Source: Frankiaceae bacterium (GTDB lineage Bacteria; Actinomycetota; Actinomycetes; JAFAQI01). From it: a stretch of 64,000 bases of DNA. The notes beneath the pieces were generated by a model that saw only the letters and a list, made by a program, of their open reading frames with translations, was not told the DNA's origin and made no database searches. Both the position numbers and the translations under genes were made by a program. The stretch spans positions 1,214 to 65,213 of the forward strand of contig JAICMG010000001.1 of the NCBI GenBank assembly GCA_025929365.1, given 5' to 3'. This document shows, piece by piece, positions 2,441 to 48,742 of this stretch (positions within the stretch are counted from its first letter, which is position 1; the number at the start of each line of letters is the position of its first letter).

Positions 2441-3268
2441 TCAGGCGCGAGCCGGGCGGGCGCCCGACCGGCCGGTAAGAGTGCGGCGGGCTTCGTCGAG
2501 CTGGCGGGCGACGCTCGCGTCGATCAGCTCGTCGCCGACCCGGACGGTCAGGCCACCGATCAAGGACGCATCGACGATGACCTGCAGCTTCAGCTCGTGG
2601 CCGAACGTGCGACTCAGCGCGGCAGCGAGGTCGCGTTGCTCGTCGGCGGACAGCGAGGTGGCGCTCGTGACGTGAGCCACCAGGCGGTCCCGGCGCTGTG
2701 CGGCGAGAGCTGACAGGTCCCGCAGCGCCCGTTCGATCGTGCGGCCTCTCGGCTCGACCACCACGCGTTCGATCAGCTTGTAGGTGACGATGTTGACCTT
2801 GCCGTCGAGCAGGCCGTGCAACAGCTGCCGCTTGCCGTCCGCGGCGAGGTTGCGGTCCGTGAGCGCAGCGCGCAGTGTCGGCTCACCCTCGACGATGCGG
2901 CCGAACCGGAACAGCTCGTCCTCGACGGCATCGAGGTCGCCGGCGGTCTGCGCGGTGACGAGCGCCGCATCAACCGCGATCTCCTCGAGCGCGTCCACCA
3001 GGTCGCGAGTCTGCGACCAACGGGAGCGAACGGCCGTCCGCAGGATCTCGAGCGCTGTCGCGTCGAGCCGCGAGCCGAACAGCGCGTCCACCACGTGGGT
3101 CTTCGCGGCTCCACTTGAGGCCGGGTCAGCCACTGCGCGACGCAGGGAGGCCTGGCCGCCCAACATCGACACGACGGCGAACAGCTCATCGGAGAGTCGA
3201 GTGAGGTCGCCCGAGTCAGGGAGCTGCCTTCGCAGTCCGGCGAGTGAGTCGCGGCTGGCACCTTGCAT
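2441..3268 (-). CDS. atpH: F0F1 ATP synthase delta subunit (OSCP)
   Basis: 275 aa, located between atpF and atpA. C-terminal OSCP-like region (…[28 protein letters not shown]…). Confidence 0.85.
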
Positions 3269-4165: not shown

Positions 4166-4909
4166 TCAGTGCTCCTCGGCCACTGCGAAGCCGAAGTAGA
4201 GGATGGTCAGGAACGAGAAGATGAAGGCCTGGATAGGCGCGATCAGGCCGGAGTCGAAGATTCGCCAGCCGAAGTCGGCGAGACCGTAGAGCGGGAACAG
4301 GTAGAACGGCAGCAGCGCGATGACCCCGAGCATGATGCCGCCGGCGAAGATGTTGCCGAAGAGCCGCAGCGACAGCGAGAGCGGGTTCACGACCTGCTCG
4401 AGCACGAGGATCGGACGCCGGATCGCGGGCTTCGCGGTGAACCAGTCGCCCACGTAGCGGCCACCCTTCCGCGAGACACCGAGGTAGGTGTAGAGCACGA
4501 CGACCGTGAAGGCGAGCGCGTAGACCAGGTTGACGTCGGCGGTGGGGGGAGCAAGGCGCTCCGGGTGGTGCCCGGACGGGATCCAGCCGAGCCAGTTGCA
4601 GAAGAGGATGAAGAAGAACAGCGTCGCCCCGAACGGAACGAGCCACGCCGGGACGTCGTGCCCCACCGCCTCCTCGACGTAGTTGCGTGCCTGGGTCAGC
4701 ACCGTCTCGGTGATGATCTGCACCCGGCTCGGCACGCCGCTGGTCGCCTTGCGGGCGACGTACATGAGGAACGCGACCGTCACCACCGCAGCGAGCACGG
4801 TGGTGTACATGGTGTCGTAGTTGAAGCTGAGTCCGACGAAGTGGAACGTGGGGTGGTCACCGACGGAGATGTCCGCGGCAGGCAGCGGGGCGAGCGAAGG
4901 GGCGATCAC
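4166..4909 (-). CDS. atpB: F0F1 ATP synthase subunit a
   Basis: C-terminal 248 aa of the 371-aa ORF matches AtpB (…LSLSLRLFGNIFAGGIMLGVIALL…). The N-terminal 120 aa of the ORF are Arg/Pro-rich junk. Start placed at the GTG at 4909, where the sequence reads VIAPSLAPLPAADISVGDHPTFHF. Start position is uncertain. Confidence 0.85.
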   Translation of the reverse strand: MIAPSLAPLPAADISVGDHPTFHFVGLSFNYDTMYTTVLAAVVTVAFLMYVARKATSGVPSRVQIITETVLTQARNYVEEAVGHDVPAWLVPFGATLFFFILFCNWLGWIPSGHHPERLAPPTADVNLVYALAFTVVVLYTYLGVSRKGGRYVGDWFTAKPAIRRPILVLEQVVNPLSLSLRLFGNIFAGGIMLGVIALLPFYLFPLYGLADFGWRIFDSGLIAPIQAFIFSFLTILYFGFAVAEEH

Positions 4910-5334
4910 GGGGCCACCACCCGGCGCAGCGGGCGCAGGAGCAGCGACATCATCTCCAGCTGGAAGGCCACGAGGCCGACGAAGATCCCCCAGCCGTTCG
5001 TGCGCCACAGCGCGGCAACCAGAAAAGCGAGGACGGTGATGAGCCCGAGCCGGGCCAGCGAGGTCTTCATCACGGCGGTCTTCGGGCTCGGCGTCTCCGG
5101 GTTGAGCGCCTGCGTGTCCGTCCAGAGCTTGCGGGCGTTGTAGCCACCCATCGCCAGACCGATACAGATGAACAGCCCGACTGCGGGACGGCCGGCCACG
5201 AGACTCACGGCAATGGCGGCCACACCGAGGGCGGCAGCGAGGATCAACGCGTTTCGATACCCGCGCGCGACGGCGCTCCATTGAGCGTCGAGGGCCACCG
5301 TCTTCCTCTCACTGTTCGTCGGATCGGACTTCAT
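4906..5334 (-). CDS. small membrane protein of the atp operon (AtpI-like)
   Basis: 142 aa with 3-4 TM helices, directly upstream of atpB as in actinobacterial atp operons. Confidence 0.6.
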   Translation of the reverse strand: MKSDPTNSERKTVALDAQWSAVARGYRNALILAAALGVAAIAVSLVAGRPAVGLFICIGLAMGGYNARKLWTDTQALNPETPSPKTAVMKTSLARLGLITVLAFLVAALWRTNGWGIFVGLVAFQLEMMSLLLRPLRRVVAP

Positions 5335-5599
5335 CGTCAGGTCTGGCGGATTCAGTTGTGGTTGAGGCTGCGCTGATTCGAGCGGGGCTGGATCGGGTGA
5401 ATGGCCGGATCACCTGGTACGCACCGGCTGCGCCACCCAAGATACCAAGCGCCAATCCGAGCAATGCGAGGAGGGGTGAGGTCCCCCACGCACGGTCGGC
5501 GAGGACACCGAGGAACACGCCGAGGCCCACGGTAGTTCCGAACGTTGCACCGACGCCCAGCAGCGTCGCGAGGTTCATCGTCCGCGGGTTGTCGGGCAC
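5309..5599 (-). CDS. AtpZ-like small membrane protein (putative F0F1-ATPase accessory subunit)
   Basis: 96 aa with two Gly/Ala-rich TM helices. Position upstream of atpI/atpB is typical for the ATPase_gene1 family. Confidence 0.55.
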   Translation of the reverse strand: MPDNPRTMNLATLLGVGATFGTTVGLGVFLGVLADRAWGTSPLLALLGLALGILGGAAGAYQVIRPFTRSSPARISAASTTTESARPDDEVRSDEQ

Positions 5600-5605
5600 C
5601 TCCGG

Positions 5606-6730
5606 CTACGGATGCCCGCCGCTTTGCGGGCCCCTGGTGGCGGTCCGCAAGCGGGGGATGTTGCTCGCGACGAGCAGCACCGCGACGGCGGCGAGCACCA
5701 CCGCGGTCACGACGAGCGGGCGCCCGTGAGAGAGCCCGAGCGCGACGGTGCCGCCCGCGATGAGCGCCGACCACGTGTACATGATCAGGACGGCCCGGGC
5801 GTGGGAGTGCCCGAGCGTCAGTAACCGGTGATGCAGGTGTTGCTTGTCGGGCGCCCACGGCGCCTGCCCCGCACGGCTGCGGCGCACGATGGCGAGGATC
5901 AGGTCGAACAGCGGGATCGCCAGGAGCGCGAGCGGCAGCAGCAGCGGCAGCAGCGTGGGGACGAACTGGTAGTACCCGAGCGCGTTGGGGTCGAGCTGAC
6001 CGGTCAGGCTGACTGTAGCGGCGGCGAAGACCAGCCCCAGGAGCATCGAGCCGGAGTCGCCCATGAAGATCCGGGCCGGGTTGAAGTTGTGCGGCAGGAA
6101 CCCGATGCACGCGCCTGCAAGGACCGCCGAAAGCAGGGTCGGCGCCGCTGCGCGGTCGAAGTGGTGGACGACCGACAGCTCGTAGGAATAGGCGAAGAAG
6201 GACAGCGAGGAGATCGCGACGACGCCGGCCGCGAGACCGTCGAGACCGTCGATGAAGTTGATCGCGTTGATGGTGACCACGACGAACAGCACCGTGATCG
6301 GGACGCCGAGGTCCGGCGACAGCGACAGCGCGCCACCACCGGGCAGCGGCACGTAGAGCAGCTGAACGCCCTGCAACACCATGATCCCGGCCGCGACGAC
6401 CTGCCCCGCGAGCTTGGTCAGCGCATCGAGACCCCAGCGGTCGTCCGCCGCGCCCAGCAGGACGAGCACGCCCCCGCCGTACAGCACGCCCTGGACATCG
6501 CTGGAGGCGAAGACGCGCTGCAGCGTGGGAAGCCGGCTCGCCACCAACAGGCCGGCGCAGATGCCCGCGAACATGGCCACGCCGCCCATGCGCGGGGTGG
6601 GAATCGTGTGGACGTCTCGGTCGCGCACTTCGGCGAGCACGTGGAGCCGGACCGCGAGACGAAGCACGAAAGGTGTCAGGAGGTAAGTCACCGCTGCGAC
6701 CAGGACACCAGTGAGCACGTACTCACGCAC
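5606..6730 (-). CDS. wecA: UDP-GlcNAc:undecaprenyl-phosphate GlcNAc-1-phosphate transferase (glycosyltransferase family 4, MraY/WecA type)
   Basis: 374 aa polytopic membrane protein with the motifs NAINFIDGLDGLAAG and FMGDSGS. Sits at the same position as rfe/wecA (Rv1302) upstream of the atp operon. Confidence 0.9.
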   Translation of the reverse strand: MREYVLTGVLVAAVTYLLTPFVLRLAVRLHVLAEVRDRDVHTIPTPRMGGVAMFAGICAGLLVASRLPTLQRVFASSDVQGVLYGGGVLVLLGAADDRWGLDALTKLAGQVVAAGIMVLQGVQLLYVPLPGGGALSLSPDLGVPITVLFVVVTINAINFIDGLDGLAAGVVAISSLSFFAYSYELSVVHHFDRAAAPTLLSAVLAGACIGFLPHNFNPARIFMGDSGSMLLGLVFAAATVSLTGQLDPNALGYYQFVPTLLPLLLPLALLAIPLFDLILAIVRRSRAGQAPWAPDKQHLHHRLLTLGHSHARAVLIMYTWSALIAGGTVALGLSHGRPLVVTAVVLAAVAVLLVASNIPRLRTATRGPQSGGHP

Positions 6731-10303: not shown

Positions 10304-10394
10304 CGATTGGTCGCCGGGTCCCCGGGCGGGGTGAACCGGTACCTGTAGCTCCAGTGTGCCTGAACCAGGCAAGCGGCCGGGTTTGTTCCCGGGT

Positions 10395-23881: not shown

Positions 23882-23953
23882 TGCCCCCGGGGCGATTCGA
23901 ACGCCCGCACCCGCCTCCGGAGGGCGGTGCTCTATCCCCTGAGCTACGGGGGC
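23882..23953 (-). tRNA. tRNA-Arg (anticodon CCG)
   Basis: Reverse complement GCCCCCGTAGCTCAGGGGATAGAGCACCGCCCTCCGGAGGCGGGTGCGGGCGTTCGAATCGCCCCGGGGGCA folds into a cloverleaf. Perfect 7-bp acceptor stem, GTTCGAAT T-loop, anticodon loop CU-CCG-GA. No encoded CCA. Confidence 0.9.
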
Positions 23954-45267: not shown

Positions 45268-45408
45268 CGCAGACCTCCAGAGGAGACGTCAGGTGCTCCG
45301 GGACGAACGAAGATGTCTCGAACTCGCCTACCCGCGCCGATCATCAGAAAACGACCGAGAGCAGCCCGTCCTGCGGGTTGGAGATGGGCCGCCAGCGGGC
45401 AGAAGGGC

Positions 45409-45753
45409 CATATGACTGAACCGATGCGCGAGGCATTGACCAACCTGCGCGAGCACACGCCGACGCTGCCCTCGGTGAAGGATGCAGGTGAGGCGGTCCG
45501 CTCCCACCTCCCGGACGTCGATCTGGACGCGATGCGCGGACATCTCACCGCGCTGAAAGAGGTCGACACCTCTGCGATCACCGAACGCGTCCGGTCCAAG
45601 GCACGAAGCAAGTGGACCCTTGCGGCGATGGTGGCCGCTATTGCCGCTGCCGCGGCGGCTGCCGCCAAGTACGCGCGGGCGAAGCGGGCCGCGGCCGCTG
45701 AGCGGGCCACCACCCCGCCCAACATGTACACGCCGCCGCTGCCCAAGGCCTGA
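45409..45753 (+). CDS. hypothetical protein with C-terminal Ala-rich hydrophobic helix
   Basis: From the internal Met MTEPMREALTNLREH…. High GC3. No recognizable domain. Confidence 0.4.
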   Translation, partial: HMTEPMREALTNLREHTPTLPSVKDAGEAVRSHLPDVDLDAMRGHLTALKEVDTSAITERVRSKARSKWTLAAMVAAIAAAAAAAAKYARAKRAAAAERATTPPNMYTPPLPKA

Positions 45754-45765
45754 GGCCGCCTTCGC

Positions 45766-45810
45766 GGGTGGCTAGGCGAGGGGTGGCTATGCGAGGGGTG
45801 GCTAGGCGAG
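45766..45810. repeat. tandem repeat, 3 x 15 bp (GGGTGGCTAGGCGAG / GGGTGGCTATGCGAG / GGGTGGCTAGGCGAG)
   Basis: Direct head-to-tail copies with one mismatch. Lies in the convergent gap and contains the stop codon (CTAG) of the 45802..46023 ORF. Confidence 0.8.
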
Positions 45811-46023
45811 CGCGGAGCTCCAGCGCTCGGCAGGATCGCGGCGCGGGTTGCCGACATGCCAGCCGCCGCAGCGGCGGCAGAAGTGCGCCGCCAGCATGAA
45901 GTCGTCGTCGTAGTTGCGCCGTCTCGCCATCGCGTACCAGGCCTGTCGGTCTGCCTCGCTGTACGTCTCGAACCGTTGCCGGCCTTCGCAGGTCTCCAAC
46001 CGGACTTGGGAAGTAGTACTCAC
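45802..46023 (-). CDS. small hypothetical protein with C-terminal CxxC-GGWH motif, 73 aa
   Basis: GTG start. GC3 is almost 90% in this frame versus AT-rich third positions in the overlapping alternative frame. Sequence …TCEG…FCRRCGGWHV… is zinc-ribbon-like. Confidence 0.45.
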   Translation of the reverse strand: MSTTSQVRLETCEGRQRFETYSEADRQAWYAMARRRNYDDDFMLAAHFCRRCGGWHVGNPRRDPAERWSSALA

Positions 46024-46109
46024 GCATGATCGATTCCCGAAACCGAAGATCGTTACGCCGGCGAGTTCGCGAGCCCCCTAGCTCAGCTCGGGCAGCGTCT
46101 GGCTGCGGT

Positions 46110-46695
46110 CGAGGGCACCCCGCGAACAGGTCGCCTCGCTCGGCCAGCCGCTTGATCAGGGAACGGACGGTGAACGCGTCGGGCCGCAGCCCGGGCCTGT
46201 CCAGCTCCTCCCATGCGATCGGCGCTGACACGGGCGACCCGGCGCGGGACGAGGGCTGTACGGCGCGACCAGCGTTTTGTTGATCGCGTTCTGCGTGTAG
46301 TCCAGCCTCGCCAGGCCACCGCGGTCGTCAACCTGCCATTTCCAGCTCACGAGGTCAGCATGACCGCCCCGACAGCCCGTGAGACTCCCTCGACCCAGTC
46401 ACGGGTCTCGTCGAAGGACGGACCGGGCGCGATCGGGAAACAGCACCTTGTCGAGGTTCGTCACCCGGAGCTCGCGACCGAACACCCGCACCGACCGGCC
46501 GTGATCCTCCGGGTCCCACCCCGACACGGCGTAGTCGTCGCGCTTGTGCAGCATCAGCCACTCCTCCTTGCCGGAGGAGTCGGTCTTGGTCCGGACCAGG
46601 ACGAACCGCCCGCGCAGCTTCTCGCCGTGCACGTCGAGGTGAAGCTCACCGGCGGCGACTGCGGCCGCCGGGTCCAGCGTGGGCCCGTTCGGCAT
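46110..46695 (-). pseudogene. remnant of an NHEJ LigD-like gene (3'-phosphoesterase C-terminus plus polymerase/primase domain), 5'-truncated and frameshifted
   Basis: Frame A (46399-46695) reads …GELHLDVHGEKLRGRFVLVR…EEWLMLHKRDDYA (PE-domain C-terminal signature), followed by RELRVTNLDKVLFPD (PolDom N-terminus). After the stop, frame B reads …TLVAPYSPRPAPG… and frame C reads …APIAWEELDRPGLRPDAFTVRSLIKRLAERGDLFAG (PolDom C-terminus). At least two frameshifts are present. The PE N-terminus is missing because the DJ-1 gene abuts at 46706. Confidence 0.65.
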
Positions 46696-46705
46696 GCGCC
46701 GGATC

Positions 46706-47266
46706 TCAGCCGGTTGCGGCGAACCGATCGACGACCTCGTGGCAGAACGCCTTCAGGTCATCGGGCTTGCGCGAGGTGATGAGGACGTTCGGACCGCCGG
46801 TGCACACCACGACCTCCTCGTCCACCCAGTTCGCGCCCGCGTTGCGAAGGTCCGTTTGCAAGCTCGGCCAGCTCGTCACCTTCCGGCCGCGGACGACGTC
46901 GGCCTCCACGAGCGTCCAGGGCGCGTGGCAGATTGCCGCCACCGGCTTACCTCGATCGAAGAACGCCCTTGCGAACCCCACTGCCTCTTCCTTCATGCGC
47001 AACTGATCGGGATTCGCGACGCCGCCCGGCAGCACAAGCCCGTCGTAGTCGTCGGCGTGTGCGCGGACGAGATCAACATCGACCGGGAAGCTGTCCGCCT
47101 TGTCGAGGTGGTTGAAGGCTTGGACCTCTCCACCGTCAGGCGCGACAAGCAGCGGAGTTCCGCCGGCGTCAGTCACGGCCTTCCAGGGTTCAGTGAGCTC
47201 GACTTGCTCAACACCTTCGTTTGCGACCAAGAATGCGATGGTCTTGCCAATCAGCTCGTCTGCCAT
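46706..47266 (-). CDS. DJ-1/PfpI-family protein (class I glutamine-amidotransferase-like)
   Basis: MADELIGKTIAFLV…, nucleophile elbow AAICHAPW, …DGLVLPGG…. Confidence 0.85.
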   Translation of the reverse strand: MADELIGKTIAFLVANEGVEQVELTEPWKAVTDAGGTPLLVAPDGGEVQAFNHLDKADSFPVDVDLVRAHADDYDGLVLPGGVANPDQLRMKEEAVGFARAFFDRGKPVAAICHAPWTLVEADVVRGRKVTSWPSLQTDLRNAGANWVDEEVVVCTGGPNVLITSRKPDDLKAFCHEVVDRFAATG

Positions 47267-47308
47267 ACCTGTCGGCTTCCCGATGCACGCCGGCATATGC
47301 AGGGTCGG

Positions 47309-48742
47309 CTAGGTGGGCAGCCGGTCCGCGCGCAACTGCGACCTGCGGACTTTTGCCGTGTCGTCCCGCAGTGGATGGTCGACCCGCTCGAAGCTGCGCG
47401 GCACCTTGTACTTCGTGAGCCGTTCGCTGCACCACGCTCGCAGGTCGTCGTCACTCACCTCGCCGCCAAGCTCGACGATGGCGTGCAGCCGGTTGCCGAG
47501 GTCATCATCCGGTAGCCCGATGACGCACGACGACAGGACTGACGGATGCTCGTCGAGCGCTGCCTCGACCTCGGCGGGATACACGTTGCTGCCCCCGACC
47601 AGGACCATGTCGGTCATCCGGTCGTTGAGATAGAGATAGCCGTCGGCGTCCATCCAGCCGAGGTCGCCGAGCGACTCCCATCCGCCCTCACGAGTCCGCG
47701 CCTCCGCGCCGATGTAGCGGTACGACGGCCCGGCGTTCGACTTCAGCCACACCTCGCCCACCTCGCCGGGCGGTAGGCGATTGCCCTCGGGGTCGCAGAT
47801 CTGCATCTGGCCGATCAGGGGCTTGCCGACCGAGCCGCGGTGCTCCAGCCACTCGACACCGTTGATGAACGTCGCGGCCTGCGCCTCGGTTCCGGCGTAC
47901 AGCTCCATGATCCGTTCCGGGCCGAGCCAGTCGATCCATGCCTGCTTGAGGTACGGCGGACAGGGCGCGGCCATGTGCATCACGGTGTGCACGCTCGACA
48001 GGTCGTAGCGCAGCCGCACCTCGTCGGGCAGCTTCGAGATGCGCGACATCATCGTGGGAACCAGATAGACCCACCCGGCCCGATGCCGCTCGATGTGCTG
48101 CAACGTCGTCTCGGCGTCGAACCGCCCCGGCAGGACGACGTGCCCGCCCGTCGCGAGCGTCGCGGTCGAGGTCAGGAACGGCCCGTTGTGGTGCATCGGT
48201 GCCGTGATCAGCGAGGTGTCCTCGGGCTTGATCCGCATCGCGGCGCCCAGCAACACGAGCCCCTCGACCTCCGCCGGGTTCGTGGCCACGATCAGCTTCG
48301 GTCGCCCGGTCGAGCCGCCGGACATGGGCGCCTTCAGGTTCGGCGCGGTGACGTCGGGAAGCGGATCGCGACCAGCCAGCGGTTCGGGCAGCGTCAACAA
48401 CGAGTCCGCGAGCGGTCCAGCGTCGAAGCCGACCGCGACGGCAGGCTTCGCGAGCTCCAGGACGGCATCCCGCTCGGCCCGCGGCATGCTCGCCGGCAGC
48501 GGCTGCGGAGTGGCACCCACGATCCAGGCCGCGACCGTCGCGATGAGGAACGACGCGTCGCTGGGCAGTCCGATGGACACGAGATCGGCGACGCTGACCC
48601 CGCGGCTCAGGAACTCGTGCGCGAGTGCATCGGCCCGGTCGACGACCTCGCTTCGGGTGAGTGTCCCCGTGGTGTCCGTGACGGCGGGTGCATCGGGCTT
48701 CTCACGGGCGAGGGTTCGAAGCGCTGCCGGAATCGAAGGCAT
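47309..48742 (-). CDS. AMP-dependent synthetase/ligase (acyl-CoA synthetase family)
   Basis: 477 aa. AMP-binding motif region (…APMSGGSTGRPKLIV…), …YAGTEA…, and a C-terminal …GWMDADGYLYLNDRMTDMV… region. Confidence 0.88.
   Translation of the reverse strand: MPSIPAALRTLAREKPDAPAVTDTTGTLTRSEVVDRADALAHEFLSRGVSVADLVSIGLPSDASFLIATVAAWIVGATPQPLPASMPRAERDAVLELAKPAVAVGFDAGPLADSLLTLPEPLAGRDPLPDVTAPNLKAPMSGGSTGRPKLIVATNPAEVEGLVLLGAAMRIKPEDTSLITAPMHHNGPFLTSTATLATGGHVVLPGRFDAETTLQHIERHRAGWVYLVPTMMSRISKLPDEVRLRYDLSSVHTVMHMAAPCPPYLKQAWIDWLGPERIMELYAGTEAQAATFINGVEWLEHRGSVGKPLIGQMQICDPEGNRLPPGEVGEVWLKSNAGPSYRYIGAEARTREGGWESLGDLGWMDADGYLYLNDRMTDMVLVGGSNVYPAEVEAALDEHPSVLSSCVIGLPDDDLGNRLHAIVELGGEVSDDDLRAWCSERLTKYKVPRSFERVDHPLRDDTAKVRRSQLRADRLPT

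Follow-up and report, generated by a model that had tools for sequence, protein, structure and literature searches.

The window (the whole stretch of DNA analysed here, 64 kb) is core actinobacterial chromosome, carrying the atp operon, prfA, rho, thrC, lysA, argS, katG-furA and an L31-Actinobacteria leader. Within it, an intact DJ-1/PfpI gene on the minus strand (46706–47266, with its stop codon at 46706–46708) lies just upstream of a minus-strand region, 46078–46695, in which homology searches and lesion mapping reveal the remnant of a LigD-like gene for a 3′-phosphoesterase (PE) domain, a linker and a polymerase (Pol) domain. The upstream part of this remnant is occupied by an open reading frame of 98 codons (46399–46695, minus strand), which is picked up by gene callers. 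Next on the minus strand comes an intact gene for a small protein of 73 aa with the pattern C-x36-CxxCGxWH (ORF73, 45802–46023), then a 15-bp tandem repeat of 3.0 copies with 93% matches (45766–45810), which starts at the ORF73 stop codon, and finally a convergent gene for a protein of 113 aa whose C-terminal segment is hydrophobic (ORF113, 45412–45753, plus strand). No promoter-like site or convincing terminator was found in 45300–47400, and no Rfam family in this region. A second assembly (GCA_025980775.1, contig JAICXA010000001.1; L001 below), reached via its DJ-1 protein, is 99.87% identical to the window over 20,562 nt, so that the two represent near-identical strains. The first-pass annotation had described a decayed LigD-type phosphoesterase-polymerase gene with a 73-aa CxxC ORF and a 3 × 15-bp repeat downstream. 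Both downstream features are present, and on the nature of the gene the homology, the broken frame, the lost catalytic residues, the intact orthologues and the second assembly all agree with it.

When the frame changes are bridged, the remnant yields a stitched product of 205–206 aa. This sequence matches approximately 2,000 PolDom proteins, both stand-alone and fused (best E = 1e-60, 77–80% identity), and scores 81.4 bits (E = 1e-22, cut-off 27.4) against the Pfam family LigD_Prim-Pol (PF21686), a score reached solely after stitching three frames and covering profile positions 148–254 of 254. Its first 87 residues match PE-domain proteins with E values down to 3e-27. The PE piece has a weak match to Pfam PF13298 (E = 0.03, 14.8 bits, cut-off 31.1; positions 81–107 of 107 only) and a clearer one to NCBIfam TIGR02777 (E = 1.5e-8, 34.5 bits, cut-off 144; positions 111–155 of 156 only), neither of which reaches a whole-domain match at the curated cut-off, whilst the Pol part scores 57.7 bits against TIGR02778 (cut-off 214.7). 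The TIGR02777 and TIGR02778 matches are partial and confined to the C-terminal ends. All of the LigD peptides that had been quoted from three minus-strand frames were found, and the similarity held up in searches against both PF21686 and the PolDom proteins. On these scores, the resemblance to LigD PE and Pol is far beyond what chance would produce. A tblastn search with the reconstructed full-length relative gave no second significant match elsewhere in the 64-kb window. The top PDB matches of the stitched remnant are designer pentatricopeptide-repeat proteins; these were rejected as a repeat artefact, because each score adds up eight repeat matches, all individually with E > 30, to one helix-rich stretch of 30 aa.

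The form of the gene before its decay can be deduced from its relatives. A scan of one genome per species led to 80 fetched loci, and 80 more were taken from metagenomes. In 64 of the 110 classifiable loci, all from Actinomycetota, PE, linker and Pol are contiguous in one frame without a ligase domain. In the other 46, PE and Pol lie approximately 1.2 kb apart, and those checked, which are from Chloroflexota, hold a ligase domain in the gap; the Chloroflexota loci fetched have the order PE-Lig-Pol. Searches with Chloroflexota ligase-domain queries covered 33 genome loci from Actinomycetota (L006–L038) and found no ligase-like gene in their flanks. The best relatives in the genome scan belong to Mycobacteriales, Jatrophihabitantaceae, Frankiaceae and Micromonosporaceae-type Actinomycetota, with identities of 77% at most, and the metagenome contig scan, which looked for alleles with fewer lesions, gave nothing closer than 79%. 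The closest full-length example is a 558-aa protein from a Mycobacteriales MAG (L006), which matches the NHEJ polymerases 5DMU, 6SA0 and 2IRU with E values of 1e-31 to 1e-38. By comparison with these proteins, the ancestor was a ligase-less protein of ~558 codons, with an N-terminal 3′-phosphoesterase, a linker of ~55 aa and a C-terminal polymerase of the archaeo-eukaryotic primase (AEP) type.

Three-domain LigD proteins, which unite Lig, Pol and PE, are arranged as Pol-PE-Lig in Mycobacterium and as PE-Lig-Pol in Pseudomonas. They differ from the ancestor of the window gene in their ligase domain, which that ancestor never had: its closest full-length relatives are PE-linker-Pol proteins that leave no space for one, and the lack of a ligase is ancestral and not a loss. 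The earlier statement that Ku and a ligase domain are missing is correct for the 64-kb window, where tblastn and Pfam scans of the larger ORFs detected neither Ku nor an ATP-dependent ligase nor a further PE/Pol gene and where no ligase similarity was seen anywhere (tblastn E > 0.1), but the missing ligase should not be counted as part of the decay. There is likewise no Ku gene within 10 kb on either side of the remnant in L001, and ku is found next to PE-Pol in only some of the relatives (L004, L019, L026, L034, L055 and L079). The same ancestral architecture, in intact form, is seen in the ligase-less PE-Pol proteins of Actinomycetota assigned to ‘non-conventional’ NHEJ (Sharda et al., 2020; PMC7719229), and split architectures of this kind are documented in Actinobacteria (PMC7719229).

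We mapped the lesions in the remnant by comparison with L006 and with orthologous DNA from three further loci: L002, a 2.7-kb metagenome contig, and L086 and L087, which carry an intact Pol domain. A global MAFFT alignment misplaced the upstream blocks (columns 430–760) and piecewise local alignments were used at those junctions. The lesions total seven, comprising four deletions and three single-base frameshifts. What is left amounts to 205 of the ~558 ancestral codons (37%), distributed over four blocks and three reading frames, and these 205 codons are 80% identical to L006. Ancestral states at the junctions derive from relatives of 80–89% identity, so the microhomology lengths given are approximate. 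All coordinates in the following account refer to the minus strand.

Deletion 1 (junction 46696–46705) removed PE codons 1–89 and left a spacer of 10 nt, rather than the 11 nt reported before, which separates the DJ-1 stop from the ATG that opens the 98-aa ORF. The PE N-terminus is therefore missing, as had been noted, yet the cause is not truncation by the DJ-1 gene but a deletion of ~0.8 kb in all that runs up to the intact DJ-1 stop. It probably also took a lipoprotein gene, because the Mtb12_C gene present in L002 is absent from the window. The first surviving block, block A (46669–46695), reads MPNGPTLDP and corresponds to L006 aa 90–98, where the conserved PE motif is VPKGPTLDP; the Val codon of this motif is the apparent source of the start codon of the 98-aa ORF, and L001 has MPKGPTLDP here. 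Deletion 2, with the sequence GACCCG at its junction (46669–46674), removed 147 nt in frame (L006 aa 99–147), including the active-site motif HVEDHPLEY, and is flanked by a direct repeat of Asp-Pro codons. Block B (46489–46668; L006 aa ~146/148–207) holds the last 60 PE codons and the start of the linker, ending HKRDDYAVSGWDPEDHGRSV. Deletion 3 (junction GTG CGG GTG, 46483–46491) cost a net 165 nt, again in frame, and with it the PE-Pol linker. Block C (46435–46488; L006 aa 262/263–279) represents the first 18 Pol codons, RVFGRELRVTNLDKVLFP.

Deletion 4 (junction 46434–46437, with CCCG microhomology and (T)CCCG repeats) is the largest of the internal deletions at 479 nt and is out of frame. 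It removed Pol aa ~280–439 (~160 codons), with the motifs IDLDPG (DxD) and TGRRGIQIW (motif II), and created the stop that ends the 98-aa ORF at 46399. The last 119 Pol codons survive as block D (46078–46436; L006 aa 440–558; PIAPGPSFDE...QTLPELS), which closes with the ancestral stop codon, TAG, at 46078–46080; the end previously placed at 46083 is the stop of an off-frame ORF. Block D is interrupted by three 1-nt indels. At 46357–46358 one nucleotide is missing from a Pro codon (GTC ATG C-T GAC against the orthologous GTC GTG CCC GAT), at 46236–46237 a second has been lost (GGT -CG CCC GTG against GGC GCG CCG GTG), and at 46113–46121 one has been gained in a G-run or C-run (GCGGGGTGCCCTCGAC against GCGGGC-GTACTCGAC). 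In place of a single uninterrupted Pol reading frame there are thus four frame changes between 46436 and 46078. The first-pass annotation had counted at least two frameshifts, which is consistent with the three single-base changes and the frame-changing 479-nt deletion, but the internal deletions, of 147, 165 and 479 nt, had escaped it. At least two internal deletions are bounded by short direct repeats of 4–6 nt, and slippage or microhomology-mediated deletion between such repeats may have produced them. Programmed frameshifting was rejected as an explanation of the broken frame, the catalytic parts being physically absent.

The consequences for catalysis can be read from alignments with characterised enzymes. 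L006 aligns with the P. aeruginosa LigD PE domain (2LJ6) at E = 7.5e-50 with all active-site motifs, and the alignment reproduces the native numbering. In this alignment R14, D15, E21, Q40, H42, H48, D50 and R52 fall upstream of L006 aa 90, the part lost through deletion 1, and E82, H84 and Y88 align to HVEDHPLEY, the motif lost through deletion 2; all of these are established as essential residues of the P. aeruginosa enzyme. The active-site positions H42, H48, D50, R52, H84 and Y88 accordingly have no counterpart in the window, where QRHRARRLHYDFRLE and HVEDHPLEY, both present in L006 and L002, are deleted. On the Pol side, IDLDPG (L006 aa 394–399) and TGRRGIQIW (aa 430–438) both lie within the 479-nt deletion, and solely the third Asp of the AEP catalytic motifs (RLDYTQN) is kept. 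This residue lies 88 residues past DxD, a spacing that equals that from D139 to D227 in M. tuberculosis.

Set against the LigD 3′-phosphoesterase (P. aeruginosa LigD PE; 2LJ6, 3N9B; PF13298; TIGR02777), to which family the ancestral N-terminal domain belongs, the window copy keeps the last ~45 profile positions but is without the first 89 and a further 49 internal codons, and hence without any metal- or phosphate-binding residue. The ancestral C-terminal domain likewise belongs with PolDom (M. tuberculosis Rv0938, 2IRU; Methanocella 5DMU; PF21686; TIGR02778). Of this domain 18 codons survive at the start and 119 at the end, the latter with the LDYTQN segment that contains the third catalytic Asp, whereas the ~160 codons that carry DxD and motif II are gone and the remaining C-terminal part is in three frames. 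Because the PE active-site residues, DxD and motif II are deleted, neither PE nor Pol activity can survive; no catalytic centre is encoded by what is left, and no function is expected of it.

The surroundings of the remnant show that it decayed where it stands. Upstream, L002 carries an AMP-ligase gene (88% identical), a DJ-1 gene (89% identical, as in L003), the Mtb12_C lipoprotein gene and an intact PE-Pol N-terminus with all N-terminal motifs. Downstream, in L086 and L087 the intact Pol domain is followed by a same-strand ORF73 homologue (80–83% identical) and then by a convergent ORF113 homologue, the latter marking conserved downstream synteny. Since both flanks are syntenic with intact copies, decay in place is indicated. 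The ancestral locus would have had the order AMP-ligase, DJ-1/PfpI, (lipoprotein), PE-Pol, small CxxC protein, convergent membrane protein. Its decay would have comprised a 5′ deletion that removed the lipoprotein gene and PE codons 1–89 and joined the DJ-1 stop to PE codon ~90, the in-frame deletions of 147 and 165 nt, the out-of-frame deletion of 479 nt and the three single-base indels. We are highly confident that the region is a non-functional pseudogene of a ligase-less PE-Pol gene that decayed in place through these seven events. Homology to a functional family is combined here with a disrupted frame, missing essential parts, intact syntenic orthologues (L002, L086 and L087) and lesions reproduced in GCA_025980775.1, and no observation speaks against this reading.

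The decay looks recent. For block D, dN/dS is 0.12 and 0.15 against L086 and L087, respectively, compared with 0.11 between L086 and L087, which are both intact. Private replacements at columns invariant in the other four sequences number 1 in the window, 1 in L086 and 3 in L087, and, measured against the outgroup L006, the window shows an excess dN of ~0.015. As the divergence of block D matches that of the intact orthologues, inactivation appears recent relative to the split from the nearest sampled relatives; if the excess dN is neutral, inactivation would date from about the final few per cent of the branch, a rough estimate with a wide error. To read the low dN/dS as continued constraint rather than youth is implausible, because three frameshifts lie inside the block.

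Seven indel events with essentially no excess substitution might suggest that the lesions, instead of accumulating slowly, arose in a short burst, through clustered error-prone or microhomology repair at this locus or through selection against a harmful truncated PE-Pol protein. A separate idea is that the 98-aa ORF is expressed with an acquired function. We consider both improbable. Approximately 0.017 neutral substitutions per site since inactivation corresponds to about one indel per four substitutions, with a wide error. Such a ratio is not obviously unusual for bacterial pseudogenes, and on this rough estimate neither a burst nor a functional 98-aa ORF is needed. The remnant is like ordinary deletion-biased bacterial pseudogenes in its multiple deletions, 1-base indels, junction repeats and intact flanks, and is slightly unusual solely in having seven indels with almost no excess amino-acid change.

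A related proposal, raised in the first-pass annotation, is that of a domesticated remnant, in which the 98-aa ORF or the Pol C-terminal piece would be kept as a small functional protein, for instance a DNA- or Ku-binding module, translated after DJ-1. The position of the ATG 10 nt past the DJ-1 stop, the in-frame nature of the first two internal deletions, the calling of the 98-aa ORF in both assemblies and the good conservation of block D are all in keeping with it. However, the 98-aa ORF is chimeric: blocks A, B and C contribute 9 aa, the 60 aa that end one fold and the 18 aa that begin another, and past deletion 4 come 11 codons read out of frame. It has no complete domain and is a by-product of deletion junctions with no functional domain. 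No Shine-Dalgarno-like sequence precedes its ATG, no promoter-like site was found, and two out of two in-frame deletions are expected by chance in ~1 in 9 cases. Block D for its part is interrupted by three frameshifts and lacks a start codon. Two of the eight SNPs between the strains fall in the 0.6-kb remnant (at 46687 and 46650, the only differences there), where ~0.24 would be expected, and both are non-synonymous in the 98-aa ORF, a weak sign, given such small numbers, that the ORF is now free of constraint. We regard domestication as very improbable and find no support for it. In annotation, this ORF should be labelled a pseudogene fragment and not a hypothetical protein.

The pseudogene reading also has to be weighed against an assembly or sequencing artefact, with the gene intact in the organism. 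The source is a metagenome-assembled contig, and spurious frameshifts do occur in this family in long-read metagenome assemblies: the L004 copy is spread over at least four frames, and many of the database ‘proteins’ (P0130–P0146) are fragments. Yet all seven lesions recur, identical to the base, in the second genome record, which has the same junctions and single-base indels whilst differing from the window by 8 SNPs and 2 indels over 20.5 kb, and since it carries every lesion an assembly error can be set aside. Indel noise does not explain gaps of 147, 165 and 479 nt or the absence of 89 N-terminal codons, and the neighbouring genes are intact. We consider an artefact scarcely credible. Nor could resequencing restore an intact PE-Pol gene, the refutation that had been envisaged, because only 37% of its codons remain. 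The fragments remain a caution for others, as many short ‘LigD’ proteins from metagenomes are pieces of frameshifted assemblies and not small proteins.

Arrival of an already broken piece by horizontal transfer or on a mobile element is scarcely credible too: NHEJ genes are repeatedly gained, lost and horizontally transferred (PMC7719229) and synteny with L002 stops directly after DJ-1, but both flanks are syntenic with loci that hold intact copies (DJ-1 in L002; ORF73 and ORF113 in L086/L087), no transposase or repeat flanks the region, and the GC3 of the ORF (0.87) is in line with that of the neighbouring genes.

The pseudogene is a clean and well-resolved case in which an NHEJ accessory gene was taken apart at its own locus, chiefly through deletions flanked by microhomology, in line with the published pattern of repeated gain and loss of bacterial NHEJ components (PMC7719229). 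Its wider importance is small: the gene family and the architecture are known and the decay is ordinary. The earlier description of the locus as a snapshot of NHEJ gene loss is apt for this gene only.

The downstream neighbour has fared differently. ORF73 is a real, conserved gene, with a dN/dS of 0.10–0.14 against its L086 and L087 homologues. Its family comprises 23 clusters among 1.8 billion representatives, with Cys12, Arg17, Ala24, Cys49, Cys52, Gly54 and His56 invariant, and is found near PE-Pol in this clade only, for which reason a connection with NHEJ is not anticipated; neither ORF73 nor ORF113 belongs to a Pfam or NCBIfam family. No gene is called at the ORF73 position in L001, and ORF73 deserves a gene call. 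The 15-bp repeat at its stop codon has no counterpart in the orthologous loci L086 and L087, and is a lineage-specific local duplication.

Among relatives, the common form of the gene in the Actinomycetota is a fusion of the 3′-phosphoesterase (PE) domain, a linker and the LigD primase-polymerase (Pol) domain in the absence of a ligase, which was seen at 64 loci, with ku inside the flanks of only 7 of them. At the 33 genome loci whose flanks were searched for an ATP-dependent ligase, none turned up. At 46 other loci PE and Pol lie approximately 1.2 kb apart, and in the Chloroflexota loci checked this gap holds a ligase domain. The architectures were compared between loci L006–L038 together with L088 onward and loci L039–L085. 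In the closest relative, the metagenome contig L002, the gene for an Mtb12_C-domain lipoprotein (1773–2318) stands between DJ-1 and PE-Pol, its start overlapping the DJ-1 stop; no such lipoprotein gene is present anywhere in the 64-kb window.

Directly downstream of the remnant, a 73-aa reading frame (ORF73; 45802–46023, minus strand) encodes a conserved small protein, with homologues at L086 791–1012 and L087 1164–1388, two loci with an intact Pol domain and the same downstream synteny. The invariant pattern is C-x4-R...C-x2-C-G-x-H (CEGK.RF...C..CGGWHVG), and of 1.8 billion cluster representatives the family accounts for 23; in one of its proteins, 913 aa long, the motif occurs six times. 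ORF73 matched no Pfam or NCBIfam family, and the sister assembly locus L001 lacks a gene call there. A 15-bp tandem repeat (3.0 copies, 45766–45810; duplicated sequence CTCGCCTAG) begins exactly at the ORF73 stop codon. Neither L086 nor L087 has this repeat in its orthologous intergenic spacer, so it is a lineage-specific duplication. Convergent with ORF73 is a plus-strand gene for a 113-aa protein (45412–45753; counterparts L086 1046–1237 and L087 1402–1518), which has a hydrophobic segment and, after it, the conserved motif N(L/M)YTPPLPK at the C-terminus, and which was assigned to no known family.

The C-terminal helix stretch of Pol, AWEELDRPGLRPDAFTVRSLIKRLAERGDL (46130–46220, minus strand), matched designer pentatricopeptide-repeat proteins repeatedly but weakly. 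We rejected this likeness as a search artefact, since every individual repeat was insignificant behind a seemingly strong summed E-value.

Fragmented genes of this type recur in the databases. On L004 (ENA ERZ25039562 contig_89167, 4900–6530) a full-length PE-Pol gene adjoining ku is broken across at least four frames, and further genes on that contig are likewise fragmented; long-read indel errors probably account for these breaks. Among the database proteins (P0130–P0146), many of the short ‘LigD_N’ entries are fragments of the same kind, not small proteins.

Between the window and the nearly identical L001, a 17-nt indel lies at the katG 3′ end (54252 versus 2998–3014) and a 1-nt indel inside a gene with a GDE_N_bis domain (42070 versus 15197), so that one of the two assemblies carries a frameshift or altered C-terminus at these places. 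An L31-Actinobacteria ribosomal-protein leader (10309–10345, minus strand, 45 bits) and a tRNA gene (23882–23953, minus strand) are consistent with an actinobacterial chromosome.
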